From a virus (lineage: Duplodnaviria; Heunggongvirae; Uroviricota; Caudoviricetes), in the IMG/VR virus record IMGVR_UViG_2617270976_000013, positions 1 through 18,202 of that record: a stretch of 18,202 bases of DNA; one strand, given 5' to 3'. Every line of letters starts with the position of its first letter. The stretch's first letter is position 1. Made by a program: the position numbers and the translations under genes. This document shows, one piece after another, positions 3,464 to 18,202 of this stretch. The notes under the pieces are model-generated. The model had not been told where the DNA came from, did not search any database, and saw only the letters and a program-made list of their open reading frames with translations.

Positions 3464-3679
3464 TCACCGTTCCTTAAAGACGCCGTTTAACATGCCGATC
3501 ACCAGGCTTAAATGAGTCGGTGTGAATCCCATCAGCGTTACCGTTTCGCGGTGCTTCTTTAGTACGCTACGGCAAATGTCATTGACGTTTTTATCCGGAA
3601 ACTGCTGTCTGGCTTTTTTGATTTCATAATTAGCCTGACGGGCAATGCTGCGAAGGGCGTTATTATGTTCTATTGTCAT
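3464..3679 (-). CDS. hypothetical protein (71 aa), translationally coupled downstream of the 250-aa gene
   Basis: ATG at 3679 with GAGG about 5 nt upstream, 8 nt after the stop of the 250-aa ORF; product MTIEHNNALRSIARQANYEIKKARQ..., no family recognised. The ORF track extends it to 3817 but that overlaps the upstream gene. Confidence 0.5.
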   Translation of the reverse strand: MTIEHNNALRSIARQANYEIKKARQQFPDKNVNDICRSVLKKHRETVTLMGFTPTHLSLVIGMLNGVFKER

Positions 3680-3686
3680 ATTGGCC

Positions 3687-4439
3687 TCACACTTCGAATG
3701 CCAGTTGAGGGGTAAAGACGTCCCGTTCAGCGTTGTAATTAAGTGAACTGGCACTGTTGAATGATTCAATGCGTTCCACAAGAACTTGCGTACGGGTTTC
3801 TTTACTTGCGGGAGCATATGGCGAACCTACCCAGGATTTGTCGATGCCTATATTTCTTGCGACGTTCGTGCTGTCTGCAGACGAAAGCGGTACATGAGTA
3901 AAAATGTCTTTATTTAACATCCGTAACCCATGAATCTTGGTGATTGGGTAGCCGTACTGATCTACAACATGACGTATAAGATCGCGTAGTTTAGCCCGAC
4001 ACGCTCTCGGTCGTTTTGCATCGTATTCCCCCATCGAGCCGATGCAGACGCGGGGAAACTCATGGCACAGACGAATAAATCGCTCATCTGGTTCGTTCAT
4101 GTGCCACACCGGAGCACCAATAAATTTACCGTGAGGCCATGCCGCAATCAGGGCGTCATTCTCTTCACTGGTTCCGCCGATAACATCCGGGATAACCGCG
4201 AATGAGAAACGAGGGTGATTACCCCAGCGTTCAACAAATCTGTAATATTCATTCCAGTCTATGGCCTTGTTTTTTGTCCAGAATGTGAATGCACCATTAT
4301 CAAGAGCAAATGATTGGGTGACTTCGGAAGCCAGATCAATCTGAGCTGGATTAGCAAAACTGATGAATGCGTGTCTGCCTTTCCAGGCTTTCAACGCACA
4401 GGTATCGGGAGTTATTGGACCACCGTGAAAATGAATCAT
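3687..4439 (-). CDS. 250-aa protein with TGT-superfamily (tRNA-guanine transglycosylase-like) motifs; candidate DpdA-type 7-deazaguanine DNA transglycosylase
   Basis: Ordered motifs resembling bacterial Tgt: LDNGAF (46-51) vs TDSGGFQ, AVIPDVIGG (81-89), CIGSMG (132-137) vs VGGL, KDIFTHVP (177-184) vs IDMFDCVMP, TNVARN (191-196) vs TRNARN. No CxCxxC zinc site. The ORF itself is secure; the family call is from a by-eye alignment. Confidence 0.5.
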   Translation of the reverse strand: MIHFHGGPITPDTCALKAWKGRHAFISFANPAQIDLASEVTQSFALDNGAFTFWTKNKAIDWNEYYRFVERWGNHPRFSFAVIPDVIGGTSEENDALIAAWPHGKFIGAPVWHMNEPDERFIRLCHEFPRVCIGSMGEYDAKRPRACRAKLRDLIRHVVDQYGYPITKIHGLRMLNKDIFTHVPLSSADSTNVARNIGIDKSWVGSPYAPASKETRTQVLVERIESFNSASSLNYNAERDVFTPQLAFEV

Positions 4440-5271: not shown

Positions 5272-6053
5272 GCTGCCACCTTCTGCTCAGTGGCTTTCTG
5301 TTTCAGGAATCCAAGAGCTTTCACTGCTTCGGCCTGTGTCAGTTCTGACGATGCGCGAATGTCGCGGCGAAATATCTGGGAACAGAGCGGCAATAAGTCG
5401 TCATCCCATGTTTTATCCAGGGCGATCAGCAGAGTGTTAATCTCCTGCATGGTTTCATCGTTAACCGGAGTGATGTCGCGTTCTGGCTGACGTTCTGCAG
5501 TGTATGCTGTATTTTCGACAATGCGCTCGGCTTCATCCTTGTCATAGATACCAGCAAATCCGAAGGCCAGACGGGCACACTGAATCATGGCTTTATGCCG
5601 TAACATCCGTTTGGGATGCGACTGCCACGGCCCCGTGATTTCTCTGCCTTCGCGGGTTTTGAATGGTTCGCGGCGGCATTCATCCATCCATTCGGTAACG
5701 CAGATCGGATGATTACGGTCCTTGCGGTAAATCCGGCATGTACAGGATTCATTGTCCTGCTCAAAGTCCATGCCATCAAACTGCTGGTTTTCATTGATGA
5801 TGCGGGACCAGCCATCAACGCCCACCACCGGAACAATGCCGTTCTGCTTATCAGGGAAGGCGTAAATTTCTTTCGTCCACGGATTAAGGCCGTACTGGTT
5901 GGCGACGATCAACAATGCGATGAACTGCGCATCGCTGGCATCACCTTTAAATGCCGTCTGGCGAAGAGTGGTGATCAGTTCCTGTGGGTCGACAGAATCC
6001 ATGCCGACACGTTCAGCCAGCTTCCCTGCCAGCGTTGCGAGTGCTGTACTCAT
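5268..6053 (-). CDS. bet: lambda-type single-strand annealing protein (Red beta)
   Basis: 261-aa product [66 protein letters not shown]... matches lambda Bet. Confidence 0.95.
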
Positions 6054-6058
6054 CCGTT

Positions 6059-6355
6059 TTATACCTCTGAATCAATATCAAACTGGTGGTGAGCAATGGT
6101 TTCAACCATGTACCGGATGTGTTCTGCCATGCGCTCCTGAAACTCAACATCGTCATCAAACGCACGGGTAATGGCTTTTTTGCTGGCCCCGCAGCGTTGC
6201 AAATGATCGATACAGAGTGATTCAAACAGGTGCTGTGGAAGACCTTTTTCCATGTCGTCTGCCAGTTCTGCCTCTTTCTCTTCACGGGCGATCTGCTGGT
6301 AGTGACGTGCCCAGCTCTGAGCCTCAAGACGATCCTGAATGTAATAAGCGTTCAT
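6059..6355 (-). CDS. gam: RecBCD inhibitor Gam (short, GamS-like form)
   Basis: 98-aa product [47 protein letters not shown]... matches lambda Gam; SD AGGAG 8 nt upstream. The in-frame upstream extension has a stop and no ATG. Confidence 0.9.
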
Positions 6356-6431
6356 GGCTGAACTCCTGAAAATGGCTGTGAAAATATCGCCTGCGAAATG
6401 CCAGGCTGATTAGGAAAACAGGAAAGGGGGG

Positions 6432-6590
6432 TTAGTGATTCAGGCCGTTACCGCGTCCGTCGAGAAAAACTTCCACGAGCAAATCACGGGTATAAGTGCG
6501 CTCGATGCCGCGATGCAGATATAGCCGTCCGCGTAAATTAGCTGATGCAGTCCAGGTACCATCTTTGTGTTTGACCAGCATTCCTGGCAT
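6432..6590 (-). CDS. small ORF (52 aa) in the kil/cIII position, function unknown
   Basis: ATG at 6590 preceded by GAGGTG (5-nt spacer); product MPGMLVKHKDGTWTASANLRGRLYLHRGIERTYTRDLLVEVFLDGRGNGLNH; below the ORF track cutoff. Overlapping alternative ORFs exist in other frames. Confidence 0.35.
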   Translation of the reverse strand: MPGMLVKHKDGTWTASANLRGRLYLHRGIERTYTRDLLVEVFLDGRGNGLNH

Positions 6591-6899
6591 GACCGCACCT
6601 CAATTAACGGTCTGCATTCCGTAATGTTGATGAACCATAAAAACTCCTGCCCGTAAGCTGGGCTGCTGAACATATAGAGACTTCTGCGCGTATTCAGGCG
6701 GTGGATGGCCGCCGGTTGTCATAACTAAGCCGCCTCGTTGAAGCGACTGAGGTATGAAATGTTGAGTTAATTTCAGCTGGTCACACCGACGTTCACGCGT
6801 CCGTTTCACCCCTCGCACTCCCCGAAGCCTGCTGAAATTCAAACTGCGGATCTAAGCGGTCATCGCAACGGTGAATCAGGTAGTTGCCGTATCGTTGTG

Positions 6900-6990
6900 T
6901 TGTTGCGATGAACTTATTTAAAACTACAGTTGTTTTATCGTCAACAACAAAAGTTGTTTTATTGGTTGTTTTAGATATAACTGGTTGTAT
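6900..6990 (-). promoter_or_regulatory. putative leftward early promoter and operator array (pL/OL-like)
   Basis: Minus strand reads TTGACG, 17 nt, TTAAAT; overlapping repeats of TAAAACAAC/GTTGTTTT in direct and inverted orientation (plus strand agttgttttatcgtcaacaacaaaagttgttttattggttgtttta). Confidence 0.4.
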
Positions 6991-7085
6991 TTAGGATGGA
7001 TTTATTTTGTGACTTGAATCGCATAGCGATAACTGAAGCGAGGTTATGGTGGTTTTTTTAACGGTGTGTGTGATGAGGGGGGGGG

Positions 7086-7113
7086 CAAAAGAAAACCCGG
7101 CACGGTGACCGGG
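7086..7113 (-). terminator. putative intrinsic terminator downstream of the repressor gene (minus strand)
   Basis: GC stem cccgg (7096-7100) / ccggg (7109-7113) with an 8-nt loop; on the minus strand followed by TTTTCTTTT and then a C9 tract (plus-strand G9 at 7077-7085). Confidence 0.4.
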
Positions 7114-7234
7114 ATTCTTACGCCGTTAGGTAAAGATATTATTGCGGTGGCTTAATATTACTACCTAGAGCAAAGATAGGAATTAGTTCTTTACTGAATG
7201 AGCACAATGCCCAGTTGATAATTTTTAATTGGTA

Positions 7235-7924
7235 CTACCCATGCTTCCTATATGTCTGCGGCATGCTCCCAATAACCTTACCGAAGATGAACACCCGGTT
7301 CATCTCGTCTTTCTCGATCGGGTCCCACGGTGAGTAGCTTTTGTTATCAGAGATGACCAGCAGCTTATCCTTCATCATTTGCAGGCGCTTTACATGGGCT
7401 GTGTCGTCGTACAGAAACGCATAGATACCATCACCGTCGAAAGATTTAACTGTGATATCAACGAACAGCAGATCACCTGGTTCGATCGTTCCTGACATGC
7501 TGTCACCACGCACGTTAATGATGCGGATATTTTCCGCCTTCCTACCATCGAACATGTGACGAGCATCGTCAAACGAGTACTCAACCGAGCGTAGAACTTC
7601 TACAAACTCACGGTTGATGACTCCCGGCCCAGCACTGACTTCTATATCAAGAACGTCAATCTTGAAGTATTTGGAATGGCTGACAGTTGATTGTATTGGT
7701 TGCACTGTACTGTCTGACATATTTCCAACGCCAGAAGATAACCATTCTGCGCGCACACCCAAAGCGTTCGCGATCTCCACGATTTTAGTTGTTTGATTAG
7801 CTTTCCCTGTTTCGATTTTCTGAATAGCAGCCTGGCTAACCCCGACCAAATCCCCAAGCGCCTTTTGTGTAAGGCCTCGCGCTAATCTGGCTTCTTTAAG
7901 TCTTTCTGAGAGTGTTGTTTTCAT
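7235..7924 (-). CDS. cI: CI-like prophage repressor, HTH plus S24 (LexA-type) peptidase domain
   Basis: 229-aa product MKTTLSERLKEARLARGLTQKALGDLVGVSQAAIQKIETGK... with C-terminal GDSM and VKRL (Ser/Lys dyad context). Start chosen at ATG 7924 (not 7990) to leave a 105-bp operator region; no SD, consistent with a leaderless mRNA. Confidence 0.9.
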   Translation of the reverse strand: MKTTLSERLKEARLARGLTQKALGDLVGVSQAAIQKIETGKANQTTKIVEIANALGVRAEWLSSGVGNMSDSTVQPIQSTVSHSKYFKIDVLDIEVSAGPGVINREFVEVLRSVEYSFDDARHMFDGRKAENIRIINVRGDSMSGTIEPGDLLFVDITVKSFDGDGIYAFLYDDTAHVKRLQMMKDKLLVISDNKSYSPWDPIEKDEMNRVFIFGKVIGSMPQTYRKHG

Positions 7925-8028
7925 AGTCCAAATGTACAACCAAGGTTTTATTCCATCAAACGAAAATGGTTGTTGACTAAAAACAACCATGGTTTTAATC
8001 TTGATTCAAATTAACCACGGAGGTTGTT
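7925..8028. promoter_or_regulatory. divergent promoter/operator region (OR, pR, pRM-like)
   Basis: Three operator-like sites sharing AACCA/TGGTT half-sites (caaccaaggtttt, aaaatggttgttg, aaaacaaccatggtttt with perfect palindrome aaccatggtt). Rightward TTGACT (7973-7978) then TTTAAT; leftward TTGATG, 17 nt, TACATT ending about 7 nt before the repressor ATG. Confidence 0.55.
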
Positions 8029-8259
8029 ATGAACCCAGCTATCAAAACAGCGATCAATATCGTTGGTTCACAAAAGAAACTGGGCGCTGCTTGCGAAGTT
8101 TCACAGCAGGCCGTCTATAAGTGGCTTCACAACAAAGCAAAGGTATCCCCTGAACATGTCGGCAGCATTGTTACGGCTACTGGTGGAGTAGTGAAGGCAT
8201 ACCAGATTCGCCCGGATCTTCCGAAGTTGTTTCCACACACCGAAAAGAACGCAGCTTAA
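8029..8259 (+). CDS. cro: Cro-like HTH regulator (YdaS-like)
   Basis: 76-aa product MNPAIKTAINIVGSQKKLGAACEVSQQAVYKWLHNKAKVSPEH...; SD GGAGG 5 nt upstream; divergent from the repressor across the operator region. Confidence 0.85.
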   Translation: MNPAIKTAINIVGSQKKLGAACEVSQQAVYKWLHNKAKVSPEHVGSIVTATGGVVKAYQIRPDLPKLFPHTEKNAA

Positions 8260-8271
8260 ATTTCCATTTCA

Positions 8272-8284
8272 CGCTCTTTAACAA
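8272..8284 (+). promoter_or_regulatory. boxA-like element (nutR-equivalent position)
   Basis: CGCTCTTTAACAA, 12 nt after the cro stop, closely matching the boxA consensus (CGCTCTTTA / rrn TGCTCTTTAACAA); no convincing boxB hairpin follows. Confidence 0.5.
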
Positions 8285-8328
8285 TAAGCAATCAACTTAA
8301 CAGTCAATTCAAACTAAAGGAGTCAATT

Positions 8329-8868
8329 ATGCAACCACTTACATACCAACAGACTAGCGGATTTAGCCCGACTGCGGTGATAAATCGTTCTCAAACAAAA
8401 CAGGTGCCAGGCCACGAAAAGATCCGTGATGCCGTCCGCGCCTGGTCGGCTGTAGATAATCAGGATGTCGTTGCCACACTCATTGTGAATGAGTATCGGG
8501 AGCAGGGCGGCGGCACCATCGATTTCCCTGATGATGTCAGCCGTGCACGCCAGAAGCTGTTCCGCTTCCTCGATAACAAATTCGATTCTGAAAAATACCG
8601 AAATAACGTGCGTGAACTGACCCCGGCAATTCTGGCGGTACTACCGCTGGAATATCGCGGTTACCTGGTTGAGCAGGATAGCTTCATGGCTAGGTTGGCT
8701 GAAATGGAAAAGGAACTCAGTGAGGCAAAACAGGCTGTCATTCTCAACGCACCACGCCACCAGAAACTGAAGGAAATTAGTGAAGGTATTGTGTCGATGT
8801 TTCGTGTGGACCCAGATCTGGCTGGTCCATTGATGGCGATGGTTACTACCATGCTGGGGGCGATATGA
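8329..8868 (+). CDS. CII-position regulator, YdaT-family
   Basis: 179-aa product; segment ARQKLFRFLDNKFDSEKYRNNVRELTPAILAVLP resembles Rac YdaT ARNTQKIFRWVEKDTPDAVEKMQALLPAIEKSMP; strong SD AAGGAG; follows cro as cII does in lambda. Confidence 0.7.
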   Translation: MQPLTYQQTSGFSPTAVINRSQTKQVPGHEKIRDAVRAWSAVDNQDVVATLIVNEYREQGGGTIDFPDDVSRARQKLFRFLDNKFDSEKYRNNVRELTPAILAVLPLEYRGYLVEQDSFMARLAEMEKELSEAKQAVILNAPRHQKLKEISEGIVSMFRVDPDLAGPLMAMVTTMLGAI

Positions 8869-8954
8869 CAGGTTCAGAAATGGCGAAAGCCGGTCTGCTG
8901 GAACAGAACCGACTTTCAGGTGCAAACCGTAACACACTCATTGCGGGAGGAATT

Positions 8955-9560
8955 ATGGCAAACACTGCTGAGATATTCAATTTTCCAGTGCCGGATGTGG
9001 CACAAAAGGAGCCGCGCGTGGCAGATCTCGATGATGGTTATACGCGCATTGCAAATGAGTTGCTGGAAGCTGTGATGCTGGCCGGATTAACACAGCACCA
9101 GCTTCTGGTCTTCCTGGCTGTCATGCGCAAAACATATGGCTTTAATAAAAAACTGGATTGGGTGAGCAACGAGCAACTTTCCGAGTTGACCGGGATATTG
9201 CCGCACAAGTGTTCTGCTGCAAAAAGTGTTCTGGTAAAGCGTGGGATTTTTATTCAGAGCGGGCGGAATATCGGCATTAATAATGTGGTCAGTGAATGGT
9301 CAACATTACCCGAATCAGGTAAGAAAAATAAAGTTTACCTGAAAGAGGTAAATTTACCTGAATCAGGTAAGAAAAGTTTACCCAAATCAGGTAAAGACGT
9401 TTACCCGAATCAGGTAAACACAAAAGACAAACTAACAAAAGACAATATAAAACCTTTTTCGTCCGAGAATTTTGGCGAATCCTCTGACCAGCCAGAAAAC
9501 GATCTTCCTGTGGTGAAACCGGATGCTGCAATTCAGAGCGGCAGCAAGTGGGGGATCTGA
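8955..9560 (+). CDS. O: replication initiator, lambda O-like (N-terminal origin-binding domain)
   Basis: 201-aa product; VADLDDGYTRIANELLEA...LAVMRKTYGFNKK matches lambda O (VADLDDGYARLSNMLLEA...LRKTYGWNK); SD GGGAGG upstream of ATG 8955; contains iterons. Shorter than lambda O. Confidence 0.85.
   Translation: MANTAEIFNFPVPDVAQKEPRVADLDDGYTRIANELLEAVMLAGLTQHQLLVFLAVMRKTYGFNKKLDWVSNEQLSELTGILPHKCSAAKSVLVKRGIFIQSGRNIGINNVVSEWSTLPESGKKNKVYLKEVNLPESGKKSLPKSGKDVYPNQVNTKDKLTKDNIKPFSSENFGESSDQPENDLPVVKPDAAIQSGSKWGI
9306..9418. repeat. origin iterons (ori) inside the O gene
   Basis: Four to five copies of about 18 bp TTTACCYRAATCAGGTAA (starts near 9306, 9333 degenerate, 9353, 9377, 9400), each internally palindromic (ACCTGA-a-TCAGGT), followed by an AT-rich stretch (9418-9462). 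Confidence 0.7.
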
Positions 9561-9609
9561 ATGGAGCGTTAATGATGCAGCGGATATCATCAGGTGCCTA
9601 GTACGGGTG

Positions 9610-9861
9610 ATGGAGATCATCAAGCAGGATAGCCAGCAGAAAGAAGGTAATCAGGCATTAATGTTGAAACAGTACTTTGTTAATCTGCTAATAATGGAAC
9701 TGTACGAGGAAGTTCATAACGGTGATGCGGCTGATTCTGTTTTTAAAAGTACGGAACCTACACAAGTACTTGATAACTTATGGAGCAAATGGCAGGAGGC
9801 TATAGCTATTTTTGATATTTGGAATTACCCAGTTGCGACTGAGGAAGACTTGGCAGACTAA
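9610..9861 (+). CDS. hypothetical protein (84 aa) in the position normally occupied by a helicase loader
   Basis: ORF from ATG 9610 (MEIIKQDSQQKEGNQALMLKQYFVNLLIMELYEE...); no similarity to lambda P or DnaC recognised; start uncertain. Confidence 0.4.
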   Translation: MEIIKQDSQQKEGNQALMLKQYFVNLLIMELYEEVHNGDAADSVFKSTEPTQVLDNLWSKWQEAIAIFDIWNYPVATEEDLAD

Positions 9862-10055
9862 TTTTCAGCACATTTGATTTCCAATAATCAACCAGCCATA
9901 ATCATGCCATTGGAGCCTGAACAACTCCGGTGACTTCTGCGCTAAACGGGGACGTTTATGCGCACATACAATCCAACCTATCTTCTCCATTCACAGATGC
10001 AGAAATGCACCTGCGTTTTTTTGCATCCAACGTTTGACCTCTGCGGAGGTGAAGC

Positions 10056-10511
10056 GTGAACCTCCCACAAGACGGTATCAAATTGCATCGCGGTAACTTC
10101 ACCGCTATCGGTCAGCAGATCCAGTCTTATCTGGAGGACGGCAAATGCTTTCGCATGGTGCTTAAACCGTGGCGCGAAAGACGCAGTCTTTCCCAGAATG
10201 CACTCAGCCACATGTGGTACAGCGAAATCAGCGAGTACCTCATCAGCAGGGGGAAAACGTTCGCTACTGCAGTATGGGTAAAAGATGCACTCAAACACAC
10301 ATACCTCGGTTATGAAACCAAGGACTTGGTTGATGTCGTAACCGGCGAAATCACTACTATCCAGTCGTTACGCCATACCTCCGATCTTGATACCGGAGAG
10401 ATGTATGTCTTCCTGTGTAAGGTTGAAGCCTGGGCGATGAATATTGGCTGCCACCTGACTATTCCGCAGAGCTGCGAGTTCCAGCTGCTGCGCGACAAGC
10501 AGGAGGCGTAA
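10056..10511 (+). CDS. ninB: NinB/Orf-family recombination protein (YbcN-like)
   Basis: 151-aa product with [17 protein letters not shown] motif (lambda NinB RSLDQNRKLWACLGDVS); GTG start with GGAGG 6 nt upstream. Confidence 0.85.
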
Positions 10512-10681
10512 TGGCTACACCGCTTATTCGGGTCATGAACGGACACATCTACAGAGTACCAAATCGTCGTAAGCGTAAACCGGAGCTGAAGCCTTCCGAA
10601 ATACCAACACTGCTCGGATATACCGCCAGCCTGGTTGATAAAAAATGGTTGCGACTGGCAGCAAGGAGGAATCATGGCTGA
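10511..10681 (+). CDS. ninE: NinE-like small protein
   Basis: 56-aa product [56 protein letters not shown]; SD AGGAGG; TAATG overlap with ninB; below the ORF track cutoff. Confidence 0.65.
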   Translation: MATPLIRVMNGHIYRVPNRRKRKPELKPSEIPTLLGYTASLVDKKWLRLAARRNHG

Positions 10682-10964
10682 TTTGAGAAAAGCAGCGCGT
10701 AGTCGGGAATGCCAGGTAAGAATCCCTGGCGTATGTAATGGCAACCCTGAAACGTCTGTACTGGCACATATCCGGCTGACTGGATTGTGCGGCACCGGTA
10801 CCAAACCGCCAGACCTGATTGCCACCATTGCATGTTCTGCCTGCCACGACGAAATCGACCGCCGCACACATTTTGTCGATGCTGCATATGCAAAAGAATG
10901 CGCGCTGGAAGGTATGGCGAGAACACAGGTTATCTGGCTGAAAGAGGGGGTTATTAAGGCGTGA
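10674..10964 (+). CDS. YbcO-like cysteine-rich protein (DUF1364-type)
   Basis: 96-aa product [34 protein letters not shown]...[11 protein letters not shown] with conserved Cys/His; SD AGGAGGA; same order (ninB-like, ninE, ybcO, rusA) as in the DLP12 prophage. Confidence 0.75.
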
Positions 10965-11323
10965 ATACCTACAGCATCACATTACCCTGGCCTCCGAGCA
11001 ATAATCGCTATTACCGCCATAATCGCGGGCGCACGCACGTCAGCGCAGAGGGGCAGGCATACCGCGATAACGTCGCCCGAATCATTAAAAACGCAATGCT
11101 GGATATCGGCCTGGCTATGCCTGTGAAAATCCGCATTGAGTGCCACATGCCGGATCGCCGTCGCCGTGACCTGGATAATCTGCAAAAAGCCGCTTTTGAC
11201 GCACTCACTAAAGCAGGTTTCTGGCTGGATGATGCTCAGGTCGTTGATTACCGTGTTGTGAAGATGCCTGTTACCAAAGGTGGGAGGCTGGAACTGACCA
11301 TCACCGAAATGGGGAATGAATGA
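10961..11323 (+). CDS. rusA: Holliday junction resolvase RusA
   Basis: 120-aa product [74 protein letters not shown]... closely matches E. coli RusA; GTGA overlap with the upstream gene. Confidence 0.9.
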
Positions 11324-11460
11324 TGTTTGAGTTTTATATGGCAGAACTTCTTCGCCACCGCTGGGGGCATCTGCGCTTATATCGTTTCCCCGGTTCTGTT
11401 TTGACCGATTACCGAATACTGAAGAATTACGCCAAAACCCTGACAGGAGCAGGAGTATGA
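11320..11460 (+). CDS. ylcG: YlcG-like small protein
   Basis: 46-aa product [46 protein letters not shown]; ATGA overlap with the rusA stop. Confidence 0.65.
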
Positions 11461-11545
11461 AGCCAGAGATAACAATCAACTAATACTGTTTTATTGATTT
11501 TTGCTTGTAATTGGCGTTCTGGTCTGATTTTTGTGGAGTAAGTTG

Positions 11546-11929
11546 ATGCGTGATATTCAGATGGTTCTTGAGCGTTGGGGAGCGTGGGCGGCTAATAATC
11601 ATGAAGATGTGACCTGGTCGTCCATTGCCGCCGGTTTTAAGGGATTAATTCCTTCAAAAGTAAAATCTCGCCCGCAATGTTGTGACGATGACGCGATAAT
11701 CATTTGCGGGTGCATGGCCCGTCTGAAAAAGAACAACAGCGATTTGCACGATTTATTAGTAGATTATTATGTAGTCGGTATGACATTCATGTCACTGGCA
11801 GGTAAGCATTGCTGCTCTGATGGTTATATCGGGAAAAGGTTACAGAAGGCTGAGGGTATAATTGAAGGGATGTTAATGGCATTAGATATCCGGTTAGAGA
11901 TGGATATCGTTGTTAATAACTCTAATTAA
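11546..11929 (+). CDS. late-gene antitermination protein Q (QuuD-like)
   Basis: 127-aa product [60 protein letters not shown]... with the Cys cluster of Q-family antiterminators; SD GGAG upstream. Confidence 0.9.
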
Positions 11930-11941
11930 TATGCCAATTGT

Positions 11942-11970
11942 TTACTAAAAATTATTAAAAATGGGGCGTT
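11942..11970 (-). terminator. putative intrinsic terminator for the porin gene (minus strand)
   Basis: Stem ggggcg / cgcccc with loop ttgaga (11953-11970); on the minus strand followed by ATTTTTAATAAT. Confidence 0.45.
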
Positions 11971-12117
11971 GAGACGCCCCCAAAAATAAAGGGTAATATA
12001 TAACAGAAGGTTTATATAGTTAGAAGCAAGTTTGTGCTCATAAAGGAAGTGGTTTGAGGGAGCCATTTATATGTGGGGGAGGAAAAGCCCCCCGCAACAT
12101 ATCTTTTAGTAATCAAA

Positions 12118-13200
12118 TTAGAACTGGTAAACCATACCTACAGCAACGATATCATCGGTAGCAACGCCAGATGCTTTCGTGAAATCGCTCTTATCAATCA
12201 GGTTGATTTTGTAATCAACAAAAGTGGACATATTTTTGTTGAAGTAATAGGTTGCACCTACATCAATATATTCAACCAGGTCCTGATCACCCCACGCACC
12301 CAAGTCTTTTCCTTTAGATTGCAGGTAAGCAACGGACGGACGCAGACCGAAGTCGAACTGATATTGTGCAACTACTTCGAAGTTTTGTGCTTTGTTGGCA
12401 ATATGGTTATTACCAAAAACAGTCATGTTCTGGGTTTCAGAATAGGTGGTAGCCAGATAGATGTTGTTCGCATCATATTTCAGACCAGCTGCCCATACTT
12501 CAGCATTTTGACCAGATGCATTCAGGCTGTTGTTACCGTAGATAACCTGATTATTAGTGCGGTCAGATTTAGCATAGGTTGCACCTACACCGAATCCTTC
12601 ATACTCATAAGTAGTGGAGAAACCGAAACCATCACCATTAGCTTCAGTTACGTCAGTGCGGTCATTTTTACCCTGATACTGAGCAGCAAAGTTCAGACCA
12701 TCAACCAGACCAAAGAAGTCATTGTTACGATAAGTTGCAACACCTGTGGTGCGACCAGTCATGAATACATCTGTTTGGGTCCAGGTATCGCCACCGAATT
12801 CTGGCAGAACGTCGGTCCATGCACCAATATCGTATGCTACACCGTAGTTACGGCCATAATCGATGGAGCCGTAGTCACCGAATTTCAGGCCAGCGAAGGC
12901 AAGACGGGTTTTATCTTTGGAGGAACCTTGAGATTCAGCGCGGTTGCCTTTGAATTCATATTCCCACTGACCGAAACCAGTCAGTTGATCGTTGATTTGG
13001 GTTTCACCTTTGAAGCCAAGACGGGCATAAGTAGTATCACCATCATCTGCATCATTAGAGGAGAAGTAGTGCTTAGCATTAACTTTCCCGTACAGATCCA
13101 GCTTGTTACTGTCTTTATTATAAATTTCAGCTGCCTGAGCAGACATCGCCATCAGTACTGATGCAGTTACAGCAGAAATTGCCACTGTTAATTTTTTCAT
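12118..13200 (-). CDS. OmpC/NmpC-family outer-membrane porin (prophage moron)
   Basis: 360-aa product with signal peptide [23 protein letters not shown], Gly/Tyr/Asn-rich beta-barrel composition and C-terminal F (..VGMVYQF); lies between Q and the lysis genes in opposite orientation, as nmpC does in DLP12. Confidence 0.9.
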
Positions 13201-13626
13201 CGTGAGCCCTTTTTTTGAACTATTATTAAAAAATGATGTCACTGCGCGATAAATATTCATCTAATCAATGTGATTATTTCAAGATGTAAGTTTTGGTTTC
13301 TCATTTGATTTGTGAAGTAGATCTCTATTTTTATCTGAACTTTTTCTATCGAATCCTATTCATGGCTCTTGGCTGAATAAAAATAAATCTATTAGCCAAT
13401 TTATATTAATGGCTGTTATTTATAAGTGCTCTATAATTTGAAGGTTCAATTTAAATCGGCTAAAAATAACGCTGGAAATTATTTGTTGGTTATTTGTTGA
13501 GATTTGCTTATGTATTTGTAGTGGTGTTTTCAATACTCGGTAGCATTCTCGCAAATATCATTTAGTGGTTTACGTACGTAAAAAATTGGTTATGCTGTTA
13601 AGAGTGGTTACTTCGTCACACAGCTT

Positions 13627-13659
13627 AAACCCGCCGTCGAGCGGGTTTTTCCATTTTTT
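13627..13659 (+). terminator. intrinsic terminator upstream of the lysis cassette
   Basis: Stem aaacccgc / gcgggttt with loop cgtcga, followed by tttttccatttttt on the plus strand, about 110 nt before the holin start. Confidence 0.5.
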
Positions 13660-13771
13660 GAGTCTCGATATTAGCTGATAACCCAATACCTGAGTTATTC
13701 ACTGACTCCGAGTCTGTTACGTTTCGTAGTATTCCCTCAATTTACACCCGCTTTGTCTGCGAGGTGGGGTT

Positions 13772-13987
13772 ATGAAATCCATGGATAAGTTAACAACGGG
13801 TGTCGCCTATGGCACCTCAGCAGGTAGTGCCGGGTACTGGTTTTTACAGCTGCTAGATAAAGTCACGCCCTCACAGTGGGCGGCAATTGGAGTGCTGGGT
13901 AGCCTGGTATTTGGCCTGCTGACGTACCTGACAAACCTTTATTTCAAGATTAAAGAAGATAAGCGCAAGGCTGCGAGAGGTGAATAA
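13772..13987 (+). CDS. S: class II holin (phage 21 S-type pinholin) with dual-start motif
   Basis: 71-aa product [71 protein letters not shown]; two TM helices; Met1 and Met4 (MKSM); SD GAGGTGGGG. Confidence 0.9.
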
Positions 13988-14484
13988 TGCCTCCATCATT
14001 ACGAAAAGCCGTTGCTGCTGCTATTGGTGGCGGAGCAATTGCTATAGCATCAGTGTTAATTACTGGCCCAAGTGGTAACGATGGTCTGGAAGGTGTCAGC
14101 TACATACCATACAAAGATATTGTTGGTGTATGGACTGTATGTCACGGGCATACAGGAAAAGACATCATGCTCGGTAAAACGTATACCAAAGCAGAATGCA
14201 AAGCCCTCCTGAATAAAGACCTTGCCACGGTCGCCAGACAAATTAACCCGTACATAAAAGTTGATATACCGGAAACAACGCGCGGCGCTCTTTACTCGTT
14301 CGTTTACAACGTGGGCGCTGGCAATTTCAGAACATCGACGCTTCTTCGCAAAATAAACCAGGGCGATATCAAAGGCGCATGTGATCAGCTACGTCGCTGG
14401 ACATATGCTGGCGGTAAGCAATGGAAAGGTCTCATGACTCGTCGTGAGATTGAGCGTGAAATCTGTTTGTGGGGTCAGCAATGA
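13987..14484 (+). CDS. R: SAR endolysin (T4-lysozyme-like muramidase with signal-anchor-release domain)
   Basis: 165-aa product; N-terminal Gly/Ala-rich weakly hydrophobic segment [18 protein letters not shown] followed by a Glu, Asp, Thr catalytic spacing ([15 protein letters not shown]); TAATG overlap with the holin. Confidence 0.9.
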
Positions 14485-14941
14485 ACAGAGTAACCGCGAT
14501 TATCTCCGCTCTGGTTATCTGCATCATCGTCTGCCTGTCATGGGCTGTTAATCATTACCGTGATAACGCCATTACCTACAAAGCCCAGCGCGACAAAAAT
14601 GCCAGAGAACTGAAGCTGGCGAACGCGGCAATTACTGACATGCAGATGCGCCAGCGTGATGTTGCTGCACTGGATGAAAAATACACGAAGGAGTTAGCTA
14701 ATGCGAAAGCTGAAAATGATGCTCTGCGTGATGATGTTGCCGCTGGTCGTCGTCGGTTGCACATCAAAGCAGTCTGTCAGTCAGTGCGTGAAGCCACCAC
14801 CGCCTCCGGCGTGGATAATGCAGCCTCACCCGACTGGCAGACACCGCTGAACGGGATTATTTCACCCTCAGAGAGAGGCTGATCACTATGCAAAAACAAC
14901 TGGAAGGAACCCAGAAGTATATTAATGAGCAGTGCAGATAG
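14481..14941 (+). pseudogene. Rz: Rz (i-spanin) disrupted by a -1 frameshift
   Basis: N-terminal about 113 aa ([45 protein letters not shown]...) is lambda Rz-like, but the frame runs into ...[19 protein letters not shown] (the Rz1 C-terminus) and stops at 14882; the lambda Rz C-terminus [31 protein letters not shown] is in another frame ending at 14941. Confidence 0.7.
14701..14850 (+). pseudogene. Rz1: Rz1 (o-spanin lipoprotein), C-terminally altered by the same frameshift
   Basis: Embedded [52 protein letters not shown] (49 aa) with lipobox VVVGC; lambda Rz1 continues ...[21 protein letters not shown] (60 aa), sequence that here sits in the Rz frame. Confidence 0.6.
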
Positions 14942-14972
14942 AGCTGCCCATATCGATGGGCAACTCATGCAA

Positions 14973-15266
14973 TTATTGTGAGCAATACACACGCGCTTCC
15001 AGCGGAGTATAAATGCCTAAAGTAATAAAACCGAGCAATCCATTTACGAATGTTTGCTGGGTTTCTGTTTTAACAACATTTTCTGCGCCGCCACAAATTT
15101 TGGCTGCATCAACAGTTTTCTCCTGTCCAATTCCCGAAACGAAGAAATGATGGGTGATGGTTTCCTTTGGTGTTACTGCTGTCGGTTTGTTTCCAACAGT
15201 AAACGTCTGTTGAGCACATCCTGTAATAAGCATTGCCAGAGCGGCAGAAAACAACATTTTTTTCAT
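14973..15266 (-). CDS. bor: Bor lipoprotein (serum-resistance moron)
   Basis: 97-aa product MKKMLFSAALAMLITGCAQQTFTVGNKPTAVTPKETITHHFFVSGIGQEKTVDAAKICGGAENVVKTETQQTFVNGLLGFITLGIYTPLEARVYCSQ with lipobox LITGC; matches lambda Bor. Confidence 0.9.
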   Translation of the reverse strand: MKKMLFSAALAMLITGCAQQTFTVGNKPTAVTPKETITHHFFVSGIGQEKTVDAAKICGGAENVVKTETQQTFVNGLLGFITLGIYTPLEARVYCSQ

Positions 15267-15446
15267 CTTATTATCCTGCATTGTTAAAAACGGCAGAATC
15301 CTATGTGACAACAATTAAACGATAGTTAAATGGATTGATGAAAATTAAAACTATATAGGTGTACGGTCAGACTATTGGAGGTAGTCAGGATTTGAATGTC
15401 AGTCTGTTGTCGGCATTCTGGCAATGCAATTTGGATAAAGCGGGGA

Positions 15447-15569
15447 TTAAAAAGATAGAGGCGAGCCGGTCAGGTAGAAATGAATCAGGCTCAAAGTGAA
15501 GCGGAAAAGGTCTGTGGCACAAGCTGATGCAGCCATAATTACAGCCTGATGATTTGTGGAATGAAACAT
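15447..15569 (-). CDS. candidate small hydrophobic ORF (40 aa), unverified
   Basis: ATG at 15569 preceded by GGAGG with a 6-nt spacer; product MFHSTNHQAVIMAASACATDLFRFTLSLIHFYLTGSPLSF; no homolog recognised. Confidence 0.25.
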   Translation of the reverse strand: MFHSTNHQAVIMAASACATDLFRFTLSLIHFYLTGSPLSF

Positions 15570-15649
15570 GTTGAACCTCCTTAATTGATGTTATTCGAGT
15601 GATGAAGGCATTCTGTCCTTCTATAGTGTCCAGTAAATCAAACAGGAAA

Positions 15650-15705
15650 CTTGTCCAACGTGTTGGACAAGCCTCTCCATTAGTGAGTTGTATTGATCAC
15701 AACTC
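15650..15705. repeat. pair of inverted repeats of unknown function
   Basis: cttgtccaac-gt-gttggacaag (15650-15671, perfect 10-bp arms) and gagttgt-attgatc-acaactc (15685-15705, 7-bp arms); lie between bor and the tail-module remnant with no flanking T-run. Confidence 0.6.
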
Positions 15706-15808
15706 TACAAAGAATTCATTACTGGGTAGATGAAAATAGTTTCACGATGAATGGAGGAGGCTATGTCGGTGGCTTCTTCATTGGAGTATCCGCGAATGCC
15801 TGCAATGG

Positions 15809-15964
15809 ATGATTGATGACGGCGTGGTGTCCCGTATTGATCTGGATATCCGCCGCACCGGGATTAATGAACTGGGTAACAGTATCACTCTCTGGCGTCG
15901 TGACGGACCGGTAATGATTTCTTTTGATGATCTGTGGAGTGCGATAACGCATGGCGGACAGTGA
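15809..15964 (+). pseudogene. truncated ORF overlapping the J start, possibly the 3' remnant of an upstream baseplate gene
   Basis: Open frame from the stop at 15737 to 15964 encoding ...MIDDGVVSRIDLDIRRTGINELGNSITLWRRDGPVMISFDDLWSAITHGGQ; overlaps J by 14 nt as upstream baseplate genes often do; no SD or N-terminal domain. Confidence 0.3.
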
Positions 15965-16871
15965 ATTTCAGCGCCCGACGCTGGCAGAAAATATCAGTAT
16001 GCTCCGTAACGATTTATTCGCCAGGCTGGACGTCAGCGACACGCTCCGGCGCATGGATGAAGACGTGCGGGCAAAGGTGTATGCGGCGGCGCTGCATACG
16101 GTTTACGGTTACATCGATTATCTGGCAATGAACATGCTGCCTGACCTGTGCGATGAGTCCTGGCTGGCGCGACATGCTGCGATGAAACGGTGTCCGCGCA
16201 AGGGGGCCACGGCTGCCAGCGGGTATATGCGCTGGGAAGGTGTCAGCGATGGCCTGAAGGTGACTGCCGGGAGTGTTATTCAGCGCGATGACCTGGTTCA
16301 GTACACGGCAACTGCCGATGCAACCAGCTCCGGTGGTGTCCTGCGCGTGCCGATCGCCTGCTCAAGTGCAGGCGCGGTCGGTAACGCTGACGACGGTACG
16401 TCATTAATCCTGGTCACGCCGGTGAATGGTCTGCCGTCTTCCGGCGTGGCAGACACTCTGACAGGTGGATTTGATACTGAAGAGCTGGAAACGTGGCGCG
16501 CCCGCGTCATTGAGCGGTATTACTGGACGCCTCAGGGCGGGGCTGACGGGGACTATGTTGTCTGGGCTAAAGAAGTGCCAGGCATTACCCGTGCATGGAC
16601 ATACCGCCACTGGATGGGAACGGGGACTGTCGGTGTGATGATTGCCAGCAGTGACCTGATTAATCCCATTCCGGAAGAATCAACGGAAACGGCGGCAAGA
16701 CAACACATTGAGCCACTGGCCCCGGTGGCAGGCTCTGATTTGTATGTATTCAGGCCGGTGGCGCATAAAGTGGATTTTCATATCCGCGTGACGCCGGACA
16801 CACTGGAAATACGGGCTGCCATCACCGCCGAGTTGCGTTCGTTCCTGCTGCGTGATGGTTATCCGGAGTAA
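15951..16871 (+). CDS. baseplate assembly protein J-like (P2 gpJ family)
   Basis: 306-aa product MADSEFQRPTLAENISMLRNDLFARLDVSDTLRRMDEDVRAKVYAAALHTVYGYIDYLAMNMLPDL... recognised as the P2 J / e14 JayE baseplate family. Confidence 0.8.
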   Translation: MADSEFQRPTLAENISMLRNDLFARLDVSDTLRRMDEDVRAKVYAAALHTVYGYIDYLAMNMLPDLCDESWLARHAAMKRCPRKGATAASGYMRWEGVSDGLKVTAGSVIQRDDLVQYTATADATSSGGVLRVPIACSSAGAVGNADDGTSLILVTPVNGLPSSGVADTLTGGFDTEELETWRARVIERYYWTPQGGADGDYVVWAKEVPGITRAWTYRHWMGTGTVGVMIASSDLINPIPEESTETAARQHIEPLAPVAGSDLYVFRPVAHKVDFHIRVTPDTLEIRAAITAELRSFLLRDGYPE

Positions 16872-17095
16872 TCCATGCATCGTATAGATACGAAAGACAG
16901 CTATTAATTAATCAGGCCAACGAATACATGAACAGTAAACAATGGCCCGGTAAAACCGCTATTGGTCGTCTGAAAGGCGAGGAACTGGCGCAATATAATT
17001 CGTGGCTGGATTATCTGGACGCACTGGAGCTGGTTGATACCTCCAGTGTGCCAGATATTGAATGGCCTACGCCTCCGGCAGTTCAGGCCAGATGA
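16872..17095 (+). pseudogene. tail fibre assembly protein remnant (C-terminal part only)
   Basis: Frame open from the J stop encodes ...ERQLLINQANEYMNSKQWPGKTAIGRLKGEELAQYNSWLDYLDALELVDTSSVPDIEWPTPPAVQAR, the conserved C-terminal region of Tfa chaperones, with no N-terminal domain; converges on and overlaps the complete tfa on the other strand. Confidence 0.5.
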
Positions 17096-17669
17096 CATCA
17101 GGCGCGGTGCTGGTATCAGTTGCCGTCACCGCGTCAATGTAATCCAGCACAGCGTTAAGGCTGGTTGTTTCTGCCTGCGTCAGTTTACGTCCGGCCTGCA
17201 ATTTCAGCTGAATCAGACTGATTGAAGCCATTGCAGTATCAATCAGTGACTGGCGCTGTGCTTCTGCTGCATCTACTGCGGCGCTATGCTGTGCTTCGGT
17301 ATCCGTCACCCATTTCTCACCATCCCATTTATCGTATGGCGTTAACGGGGCGATAGTGGTTGTATTATCAGGGTAATCACCCGGAGCTGTGATTTCTTTT
17401 GACTCTCCCGTTTTGGTGCTATAGACGATTTCACCGCGATGGTCTGGCACATATTCCCATGAGTTAAAATTTGCAGAACGACAGATAGCATAACCCGCCT
17501 TATGTGTGCCAGGGGCATCTAAACAGGAATATGCAGGAATACCGACACCAATGGCAAGATATTCAGTTGATGCTGAAATATATTCCTGCGTCTCACTATC
17601 ATAGTTATAAACGGTAATATCCCCCGACTTTGTAGCAATAAGCTCACTATTTAATATTGCTTTATCCAT
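17067..17669 (-). CDS. tfa: tail fibre assembly protein (Tfa chaperone)
   Basis: 200-aa product ending ...QSLIDTAMASISLIQLKLQAGRKLTQAETTSLNAVLDYIDAVTATDTSTAPDVIWPELPEA, the characteristic Tfa C-terminus; start overlaps the stop of the upstream tail-fibre ORF (TAATG). Confidence 0.85.
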   Translation of the reverse strand: MDKAILNSELIATKSGDITVYNYDSETQEYISASTEYLAIGVGIPAYSCLDAPGTHKAGYAICRSANFNSWEYVPDHRGEIVYSTKTGESKEITAPGDYPDNTTTIAPLTPYDKWDGEKWVTDTEAQHSAAVDAAEAQRQSLIDTAMASISLIQLKLQAGRKLTQAETTSLNAVLDYIDAVTATDTSTAPDVIWPELPEA

Positions 17670-18202
17670 TATGCTGCTCTCACGATATAGTTAAATGCAA
17701 TGTTTCGAGGGCGATTCTCTGATGCTGTTGGTACAACCCTGGATGCATCAAAACTGAATCCTGTGTAAGGGGTATTTTTTGTTTCATATGTGCCTAGGTT
17801 ATTATAGATATTTCGCGTAGCTTGAGATGCTAAGGCAAAAGCACCAGTACCAGTCTGTAACCTGAAAGTTGCTGTATCAATGGTGCCTTTAACTTCATTT
17901 ATAAATCCTGTTATATTCCGAATGGTATCTCCCTGTGACGAAAGCAAGCTACGGTTAGTATCAATCCCTCTTCCATCATCCCAGCCACGAATAAACTCAC
18001 CGCGTAAATCAGGCAATTTATTTGTCGGGTAAACCTTTGCCAGTTCCGGGTATTCTTCAGCAGAAAAAGCCGCCCCGTTGCATTTCAGCCAGCCTGTTGG
18101 CGGAGTGGCGGAAGGCCACGGAACAGGCACGCCAACGGGTAATGCCGAACCTTCTCCCAAACCAACGTTTATGAAAATGCAGAAATAACGAGCAAATGGC
18201 AT
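17669..18202 (-). CDS. tail fibre protein, C-terminal (variable) segment with tail-collar domain
   Basis: 177-aa product containing LPDLRGEFIRGWDDGRGIDTNRSL (tail-collar signature); only 177 aa, so it cannot be a whole fibre; the ATG sits at the last bases of the window. Confidence 0.75.
   Translation of the reverse strand: MPFARYFCIFINVGLGEGSALPVGVPVPWPSATPPTGWLKCNGAAFSAEEYPELAKVYPTNKLPDLRGEFIRGWDDGRGIDTNRSLLSSQGDTIRNITGFINEVKGTIDTATFRLQTGTGAFALASQATRNIYNNLGTYETKNTPYTGFSFDASRVVPTASENRPRNIAFNYIVRAA
18152..18177. other. candidate DNA-invertase crossover site (hix/gix/pix-like)
   Basis: TTCTCCCAAACCAACGTTTATGAAAA: 26 bp, imperfect dyad around an AAACC-AA-CGTTT core; resembles hixL (TTCTTGAAAACCAAGGTTTTTGATAA) recalled from memory; lies within the 5' end of the tail-fibre segment. 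Confidence 0.5.

Follow-up and report, generated by a model that had tools for sequence, protein, structure and literature searches.

Deletion junctions and gene fragments at the decayed tail-gene end of an SfV/SfI/e14-type prophage of Escherichia coli

How did a baseplate J-like gene in a phage-derived stretch of DNA come to lie between a short open reading frame (ORF) with no start context and no more than the end of a tail-fibre assembly gene (tfa)? We analysed this stretch over its whole length of 18,202 nucleotides (the window). The original prediction, made from the sequence alone, had proposed at least two deletions that left J as an island. There is very little doubt that the window is the decayed tail-gene end of an SfV/SfI/e14-type prophage, in which deletion junctions left gene fragments. 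This high confidence applies to the best explanation as a whole, i.e., a decayed late-gene end with three microhomology junctions at which about 17.2 kb were removed.

Prophage identity and intact relatives

The host strain is E. coli 2-316-03_S4_C2 (assembly GCA_000704325.1), and window positions 5951-18202 were 100% identical to its contig JNQT01000010.1. The window starts with proA (1-1254), followed by the tRNA-Thr(CGU) gene thrW (1369-1444) and a tyrosine integrase ORF (1459-2622); both proA and the integrase ORF gave 98.8% alignments to the annotated genes of strain G1/2. Integration at thrW/proA with the integrase adjoining is as in the SfV/SfI/e14 type. The tRNA-Thr gene next to proA has been published as the site at which SfI, SfV and related phages integrate, and SfV and SfI have a mosaic architecture as well as an HNH gene in a cos-type packaging module (PMC3636060). 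After the integrase, the window contains lambdoid early genes, the Q antiterminator gene, a porin gene, a holin-lysozyme-Rz cassette and an iss/bor-like lipoprotein gene, an architecture published for the SfV/SfI/e14 group (PMC3636060). The prophage type combines lambdoid early and lysis genes with an HK97-type head and a Mu-type contractile tail.

Four intact references were used for comparison, namely the prophages of strains 3036 (L001), VG1046-3E9 (L002, L005), ET201 (L004) and G1/2 (L145). The closest was G1/2 (96.8-98.8% identity to the aligned parts of the window), which occupies the same proA-thrW locus and has every gene that is missing from the window. In G1/2, VG1046-3E9 and 3036 the genes follow in the order HNH, terminase, portal, capsid, sheath, tube, tape measure, gp45, gp46 and J, and on from J come ymfQ, fibre, tfa, an inverted tfa plus fibre, and pin. 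The products measure 141 aa (gp46), 352 aa (J), 194 aa (ymfQ), about 214-374 aa (fibre) and 147 aa (tfa) in intact relatives. As these relatives carry full-length genes in that order, the short ORFs of the window are fragments. Between J and tfa, where a second baseplate gene, the constant part of the fibre and the tfa N-terminus had been predicted to be missing, the intact relatives have ymfQ, the fibre gene and a complete tfa, and the short ORFs were not seen as genuine full-length genes in intact homologues.

The window element has its integration site and mosaic architecture in common with SfV, SfI and intact proA-thrW prophages such as G1/2. However, while these prophages are complete with about 37-38 kb, the window element is without about 17 kb of late genes and, in the replication module, also lacks P, ren and the C-terminus of O. 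It belongs to the SfV/SfI/e14 type as a remnant and not as a functional member.

Three side observations concern the rest of the element. At 9556-9873, 318 bp that were unmatched in the fetched references take the place of about 3.8 kb of the G1/2 replication module (P, ren, the C-terminal part of the O-like protein and adjoining ORFs), and the O-like ORF has 231 aa vs. 339 aa. This looks like a further scar, which would make the prophage defective for replication too. In the early-left region, a 775-bp segment (3662-4436) stands in place of 283 bp at the equivalent place in G1/2 as a mosaic replacement. Two cargo genes on the minus strand, the OmpC/NmpC-like porin gene between Q and the lysis genes (12118-13200) and the iss/bor-like serum-resistance lipoprotein gene after Rz (14973-15266), were both kept while the adjoining structural genes were lost.

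Three junctions and the fragments that flank them

A megablast search with window positions 15300-18202 against 5,426 complete E. coli genomes matched 4,123 of them. Among the matches listed, all alignments begin at window position 15787 and span about 4.0 kb of the subject vs. 2.4 kb of the window. Alignment to the four intact references gave the same three junctions, termed A, B and C, and so mapped the deletion endpoints in the tail module.

Junction A (15787-15788, microhomology TA) was resolved by three-way junction alignments. On its left, the spacer from the iss/bor-like gene to the HNH gene is retained on the plus strand (15315-15787) and stops 3 nt before the HNH start codon; positions 14930-15788 are 99.7% identical to VG1046-3E9 (reverse complement of L005, 1-859), where the HNH gene comes next. 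The sequence ...CATTGGAGTA, 3 nt before the HNH ATG, is joined to TCCGCGAATG... at about codon 84 of the 141-codon gp46 gene. Relative to G1/2, 15,609 bp are deleted at this junction, and 15,531 bp relative to VG1046-3E9. The lost stretch carries the genes for HNH, the two terminase subunits, portal, protease, capsid, connectors, sheath, tube, tape measure and the DNA-circularisation protein, along with two baseplate genes and codons 1-83 of gp46. The window thus holds no complete morphogenesis module from HNH to baseplate, all of which lies inside the 15.6 kb removed at junction A.

To the right of junction A, the last 58 codons and the stop codon of gp46, a Mu gp46-like baseplate gene, remain on the plus strand (15788-15964). 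This remnant aligns to strain 3036 from position 6001, within the 141-aa gp46 gene at 5753-6178. The predicted ORF of about 50 startless codons before J is therefore real as this 58-codon tail: it can be read from 15740 to the end of the frame at 15964, with 51 codons counted from the first ATG at 15809, while 15737-15739, earlier taken as the ORF start, is a stop codon. Only positions 60-100 of 101 of the Pfam GP46 profile (PF07409) were matched and not the full-length domain, whereas the strain 3036 counterparts of all three fragments (gp46, J and tfa) matched full Pfam profiles.

In many prophages that are otherwise complete, the 51-aa ORF has been called as a gene of its own. A one-base frameshift from G5 to G4 splits gp46 into 90 and 51 aa and accounts for these separate calls; the 51-aa ORF is no genuine short gene. 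The G5-to-G4 change lies 5 nt upstream of the gp46 breakpoint hot spot described below, and the 90-aa and 51-aa ORFs overlap at ATGA. It was located at 1490-1503 in ET201 (L004) and at about 3970-3981 in six further loci (L011-L014, L017, L019), which corresponds to a place immediately to the left of window 15788. In the index of the searched collection the 51-aa ORF occurs in 181 blocks, and none of 120 IMG/VR contigs carried the G5-to-G4 change.

The baseplate J/gp47 gene itself is truncated (J', 15951-16871, plus strand), with 306 aa vs. 352 aa in relatives. J' consists of J codons 1-305 of 352 fused to the last ymfQ codon and the native ymfQ stop, so that 47 codons are gone; its alignment to strain 3036 stops at 7082, while J of that strain extends to 7223. 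The fusion point is junction B (16860-16865, microhomology TATCCG), where codon 305 of J is joined to the end of ymfQ by a 713-bp deletion of the J 3' end and nearly all of ymfQ. Accordingly, the domain set of J' is incomplete: Baseplate_J (PF04865) was matched at positions 2-239 of 255, compared to 2-255 in a 352-aa relative, and Baseplate_J_C is listed for the 352-aa relatives but not for J'. Compared to three intact J alleles, J' showed 13-23 synonymous and 3-5 non-synonymous differences (pN/pS 0.04-0.13), and its frame has neither internal stops nor frameshifts. As the differences are mostly synonymous and the frame is clean, the deletions would be recent relative to allele divergence. Judging by these substitution patterns, we take the differences to date from the functional gene and the deletions to be young.

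Between junctions B and C, a plus-strand island is retained (16866-16891) with the last codon and stop of ymfQ (TAA at 16869-16871), a spacer of 3 nt, and the first seven codons of the fibre gene from its ATG (16875). It amounts to 36 aligned bp (window 16860-16895 to strain 3036, 7787-7822), or 26 bp if the junction microhomologies are excluded. At junction C (16892-16895, microhomology GAAA), codon 7 of the fibre gene is joined to about codon 81 of the 147 tfa codons, and 906 bp are deleted vs. strain 3036 or 858 bp vs. G1/2. The joined genes are in different reading frames, and that of the fibre gene comes to a stop after 10 codons. What follows is a tfa C-terminal fragment of 67 codons (16892-17095, plus strand), which aligns to strain 3036 from 8725, within the tfa gene at 8485-8928. 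It covers only positions 71-130 of the 131-position Caudo_TAP profile (PF02413), short of the full-length domain, in agreement with the C-terminal-only tfa that had been noticed after J.

The proposal of two or more deletions around J therefore held in that junctions lie on both sides of the gene and show microhomologies of 2, 6 and 4 bp at A, B and C. It has to be modified in that the junctions are three and J is no intact island, as it lacks 47 codons itself.

The debris is adjoined by the frozen half of an invertible fibre cassette. Invertible tail-fibre segments are known from the Din family (Mu G/Gin, P1 C/Cin, e14 P/Pin), in which convergent pairs of a fibre C-terminal segment and tfa lie between inverted 26-bp sites, with a serine invertase adjoining. 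This layout was seen in the intact relatives: two crossover sites of 20-26 bp in inverted orientation, separated by about 1.85 kb in strain 3036 and ET201, enclose two variable fibre parts and two tfa genes, and pinE adjoins. In the window, a full-length alternative tfa (tfaE-like, 200 aa, Caudo_TAP 1-131 of 131) lies on the minus strand (17067-17669); it equals tfaE of strain 3036 and K-12 in length, and the plus-strand tfa fragment overlaps it convergently by 29 nt. It is followed by an alternative fibre C-terminal segment (stfE-like, 177 aa, Pfam Collar; 17669-18202, minus strand) in the unexpressed orientation, equivalent to the 'phage tail protein' at 9502-10035 of strain 3036. The crossover site TTCTCCCAAACCAACGTTTATGAAAA (18152-18177, plus strand) was the single match in the window, even at 3 mismatches. 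The left copy (8086-8105 in strain 3036) falls inside deletion C and is therefore gone from the window. Unlike the intact relatives, the window has thus lost the left site together with one of the variable fibre parts and the greater part of one tfa, and no complete fibre gene is left. Nor does an intact serine invertase lie beside the segment; outside the window, the source contig has pin cut to a 42-aa Resolvase fragment, followed by a GmrSD-type gene. With these losses and a truncated invertase, the inversion switch can no longer work.

The truncated pin was also found elsewhere. In the source contig beyond the window end (L006, 12282-14395) as well as in VG1046-3E9 (L005) and ET201 (L004), pin has only about 41-61 codons left and directly adjoins a GmrSD/DUF262 type IV restriction gene. 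Since the otherwise intact VG1046-3E9 prophage has the same truncated pin, the pin cut is older than the deletions of the window. The fibre segment has opposite orientations in VG1046-3E9 and the window despite the shared cut, and so inversion took place either before the pin cut or in trans by another invertase.

Mechanism, number of events and rival explanations

In the proposed mechanism, illegitimate recombination at three junctions with microhomologies of 2-6 bp would have removed the whole packaging/head/tail module and ymfQ, as well as the 3' end of J, the first 80 tfa codons and, together with the left inversion site, the constant part of the fibre gene. The gp46 tail, the C-terminally truncated J, the 10-codon fibre stub and the tfa tail would be left as non-functional debris, the remaining fragments having presumably lost their function. 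No IS element or recombinase site was found at junctions A, B and C. This, together with the short microhomology at each of them, is the pattern of microhomology-mediated deletion and argues for microhomology-mediated illegitimate recombination. The best-supported process is illegitimate recombination without RecA, in which slippage, template switching or end joining at microhomology may have been at work, even though the microhomology of only 2 bp at junction A does not by itself tell mechanisms apart.

The number of events was probably two or three. Genomes with only A, only B or only C were found neither in the 5,426 complete E. coli genomes nor in exact-protein look-ups. Junctions B and C may have a common origin in a single complex event, in which the template was switched twice and a short island copied in between. 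Only 26 unambiguous bases separate the two junctions, both of which show microhomology, and all contigs with B that reach far enough also carry C. Complex events with microhomology at each switch are the signature of the MMBIR model (PMC2621351). However, other strains have independent deletions in J-ymfQ (L022, L023), so that two separate hits are not implausible here, and the missing intermediates may simply reflect a rare clone. We rate one two-jump template switch and two hits in a deletion-prone stretch as about equally probable.

The remaining explanations concern the nature of the junctions as such. Cas3 deletions combine a fixed endpoint with variable upstream endpoints, a pattern that the fixed right end and variable upstream ends at the gp46 hot spot resemble; an AAG motif precedes this hot spot, the 2-bp overlap at junction A is what serine recombinases leave, and the pin gene and its crossover sites belong to the tail module. 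Nevertheless, it is very unlikely that a site-specific enzyme (Pin or the phage integrase at own or pseudo-sites, or CRISPR-Cas3 by self-targeting of gp46) made the junctions: the flanks of A, B and C showed no resemblance to the 26-bp crossover site, the right breakpoint of the LR-33 remnant (L003) lies 44 nt from a crossover site and not at it, and no CRISPR array of the 5,426 complete genomes contained a matching spacer. Hardly any credence can be given to the idea that the short ORFs represent real, compact genes which make up a minimal but functional tail-fibre or baseplate module. Although the clean J' frame points to past purifying selection and the 51-aa ORF is called as a gene in many genomes, homology to the full-length genes starts and stops in mid-domain exactly at the junctions, the fibre gene is cut to 10 codons, and the gp46 frameshift explains the 51-aa call elsewhere. 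The source is a short-read draft assembly, in which junctions can be suspected to be artefacts; the probability of this is negligible, since the NCBI contig and three further contigs from other sequencing runs, 100% identical over 14846-18073, agree across A, B and C, and microhomologies of 2-6 bp are far below assembler k-mer sizes. Microhomology-mediated illegitimate recombination hence remains the preferred explanation.

Recurrent breakpoints and other decayed prophages

The finding is a fresh instance of a well-known process, ordinary prophage decay. The K-12 element e14 (ymfN, beeE, jayE, ymfQ, stfP, tfaP, tfaE, stfE, pinE) belongs to the same phage family as the window, with the same tail-end genes in the same order and up to about 96% nucleotide identity. 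It is deletion-scarred as well: the portal fragment beeE is fused to the 5'-truncated jayE, and the chimeric replication/terminase ORF ymfN is oweE joined to aaaE. While the window element lies in thrW and lost the 3' end of J, e14 lies in icd and lost the 5' end. Moreover, e14 keeps the invertible fibre cassette end and retains ymfQ, stfP, a full tfaP, both crossover sites and an intact pinE, all of which are deleted or broken in the window. Further decayed strains are LR-33, in which the HNH-upstream point of junction A is joined to the far fibre segment, EC812A1, in which ymfT is joined to gp46, and strains 41 and 18AR0366 with deletions within J-ymfQ.

The gp46 endpoint of junction A was used repeatedly. 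At the site that reads GGGGGTATA^TCCGCG in relatives (window 15783-15795, the caret marking the breakpoint; wild-type sequence GGGGGTATATCCGCG), at least eight independent deletions from different E. coli assemblies end within about 5 bp. Their left partners are the HNH spacer (junction A of this window), ymfT (L021), the DNA-circularisation gene (L016), gp45 (L018), tape measure (L146/L147), terminase (L148), sheath (L149) and an unmapped partner in the chimeric protein P0004. Microhomology at this main hot spot ranged from 0 to 5 bp. The exact junction sequences differ (TATATCC, ATATCC, GTATCC, TTTCC and others), and none of them can derive from another.

Other sites were reused, too. A second site, GGATA^TCCGCC, 60 bp downstream (window 15845-15855, GGATATCCGCC), was used three times (L150-L152), and a third, GCAA^TGGATG (window 15803-15809), twice (L153, L154). 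The second site contains another TATCCGC heptamer, inside the palindrome GGATATCC. The 18AR0366 deletion has its left end at the J site used by junction B, and the LR-33 junction has its left end in common with junction A and CATA^TCCGG as right partner. Junction B, the L023 junction and the LR-33 junction lie at other copies of (A/T)TATCCG(C/G), and the beeE/jayE junction of K-12 e14, at GGGTA^TATGCGC, matches the main hot spot in 11 of 12 bases. In the 3.7 kb from gp45 to tfa, TATCCGC occurs in four copies, three of which are recurrent breakpoints. In addition, the site GCGTATC^TGGGG in ymfQ (L022 4270-4285, L023 4066-4080), a right endpoint 84 nt before the end of ymfQ, is common to different deletions of two strains and is a recurrent breakpoint at a TATC motif.

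When 16 events were simulated uniformly on 250 nt, eight within 6 nt occurred in 0 of 400,000 runs; for the 12 in-frame chimeras alone, of which four fell within 6 nt, the simulation gave p of about 0.017. The sampling of breakpoints was anchored on the gp46 C-terminus and is biased to short chimeric ORFs. Partial gp46 was present in 12 of 1,113 complete-genome records, so that such deletions are rare per genome. A protein search with the gp46 part just upstream yielded few candidates for rightward deletions from the hot spot. In an IMG/VR survey for further remnants all 120 contigs were intact at the hot spot, and scans of JGI metagenomes and GTDB representatives for patterns of a left flank other than the intact one gave no match.

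Several candidate causes of the recurrence were tried and rejected. A repeat-spacer-repeat query for CRISPR self-targeting of gp46 found no array with the spacer in the 5,426 genomes, and deletion by Pin at pseudo-sites finds no support in the junction flanks and the position of the LR-33 breakpoint mentioned above. The DNA of five breakpoint regions was predicted to fold no more stably than shuffled sequences (z -1.8 to +0.5), which speaks against a hairpin or cruciform. As a break point, cos was dismissed because the published SfI cos, TGCCCGCCCC, is unrelated to the motif; on our reading, cos would lie roughly 0.4 kb downstream of the left end of junction A.

The recurrence of the gp46 endpoint of junction A in unrelated strains indicates that the choice of breakpoint is not random, and a purely stochastic slippage model is incomplete. 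We tentatively consider that copies of (A/T)TATCCG(C/G) in gp46-J-ymfQ might act as sequence-directed break sites that repeatedly seed upstream deletions from a fixed right end, a possibility that motif positions suggest but that we would sooner doubt than assume. The break could start as a nick made by the HNH endonuclease that is associated with the prophage's terminase, or it could arise where forks stall at the neighbouring G5-TATA tract, which, beside the hot spot, is a frameshift hot spot as well (G5-to-G4 alleles). The motif-associated recurrent breakpoints are an unexplained lead and no established finding.

J' and the tails of gp46 and tfa should be annotated as pseudogene fragments. 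While a deletion-scarred prophage end by itself is a routine example of decay, the wider point is that breakpoints recur at base-pair level across unrelated E. coli strains. If directed break sites exist, decay of SfV/e14-type prophages would be partly deterministic. A motif or enzyme that directs the breaks would explain the frequent survival of the fibre and invertase end in e14-like elements, would offer a tractable natural system for hot spots of illegitimate recombination, and would call for caution in taking shared deletion endpoints as evidence of common descent.
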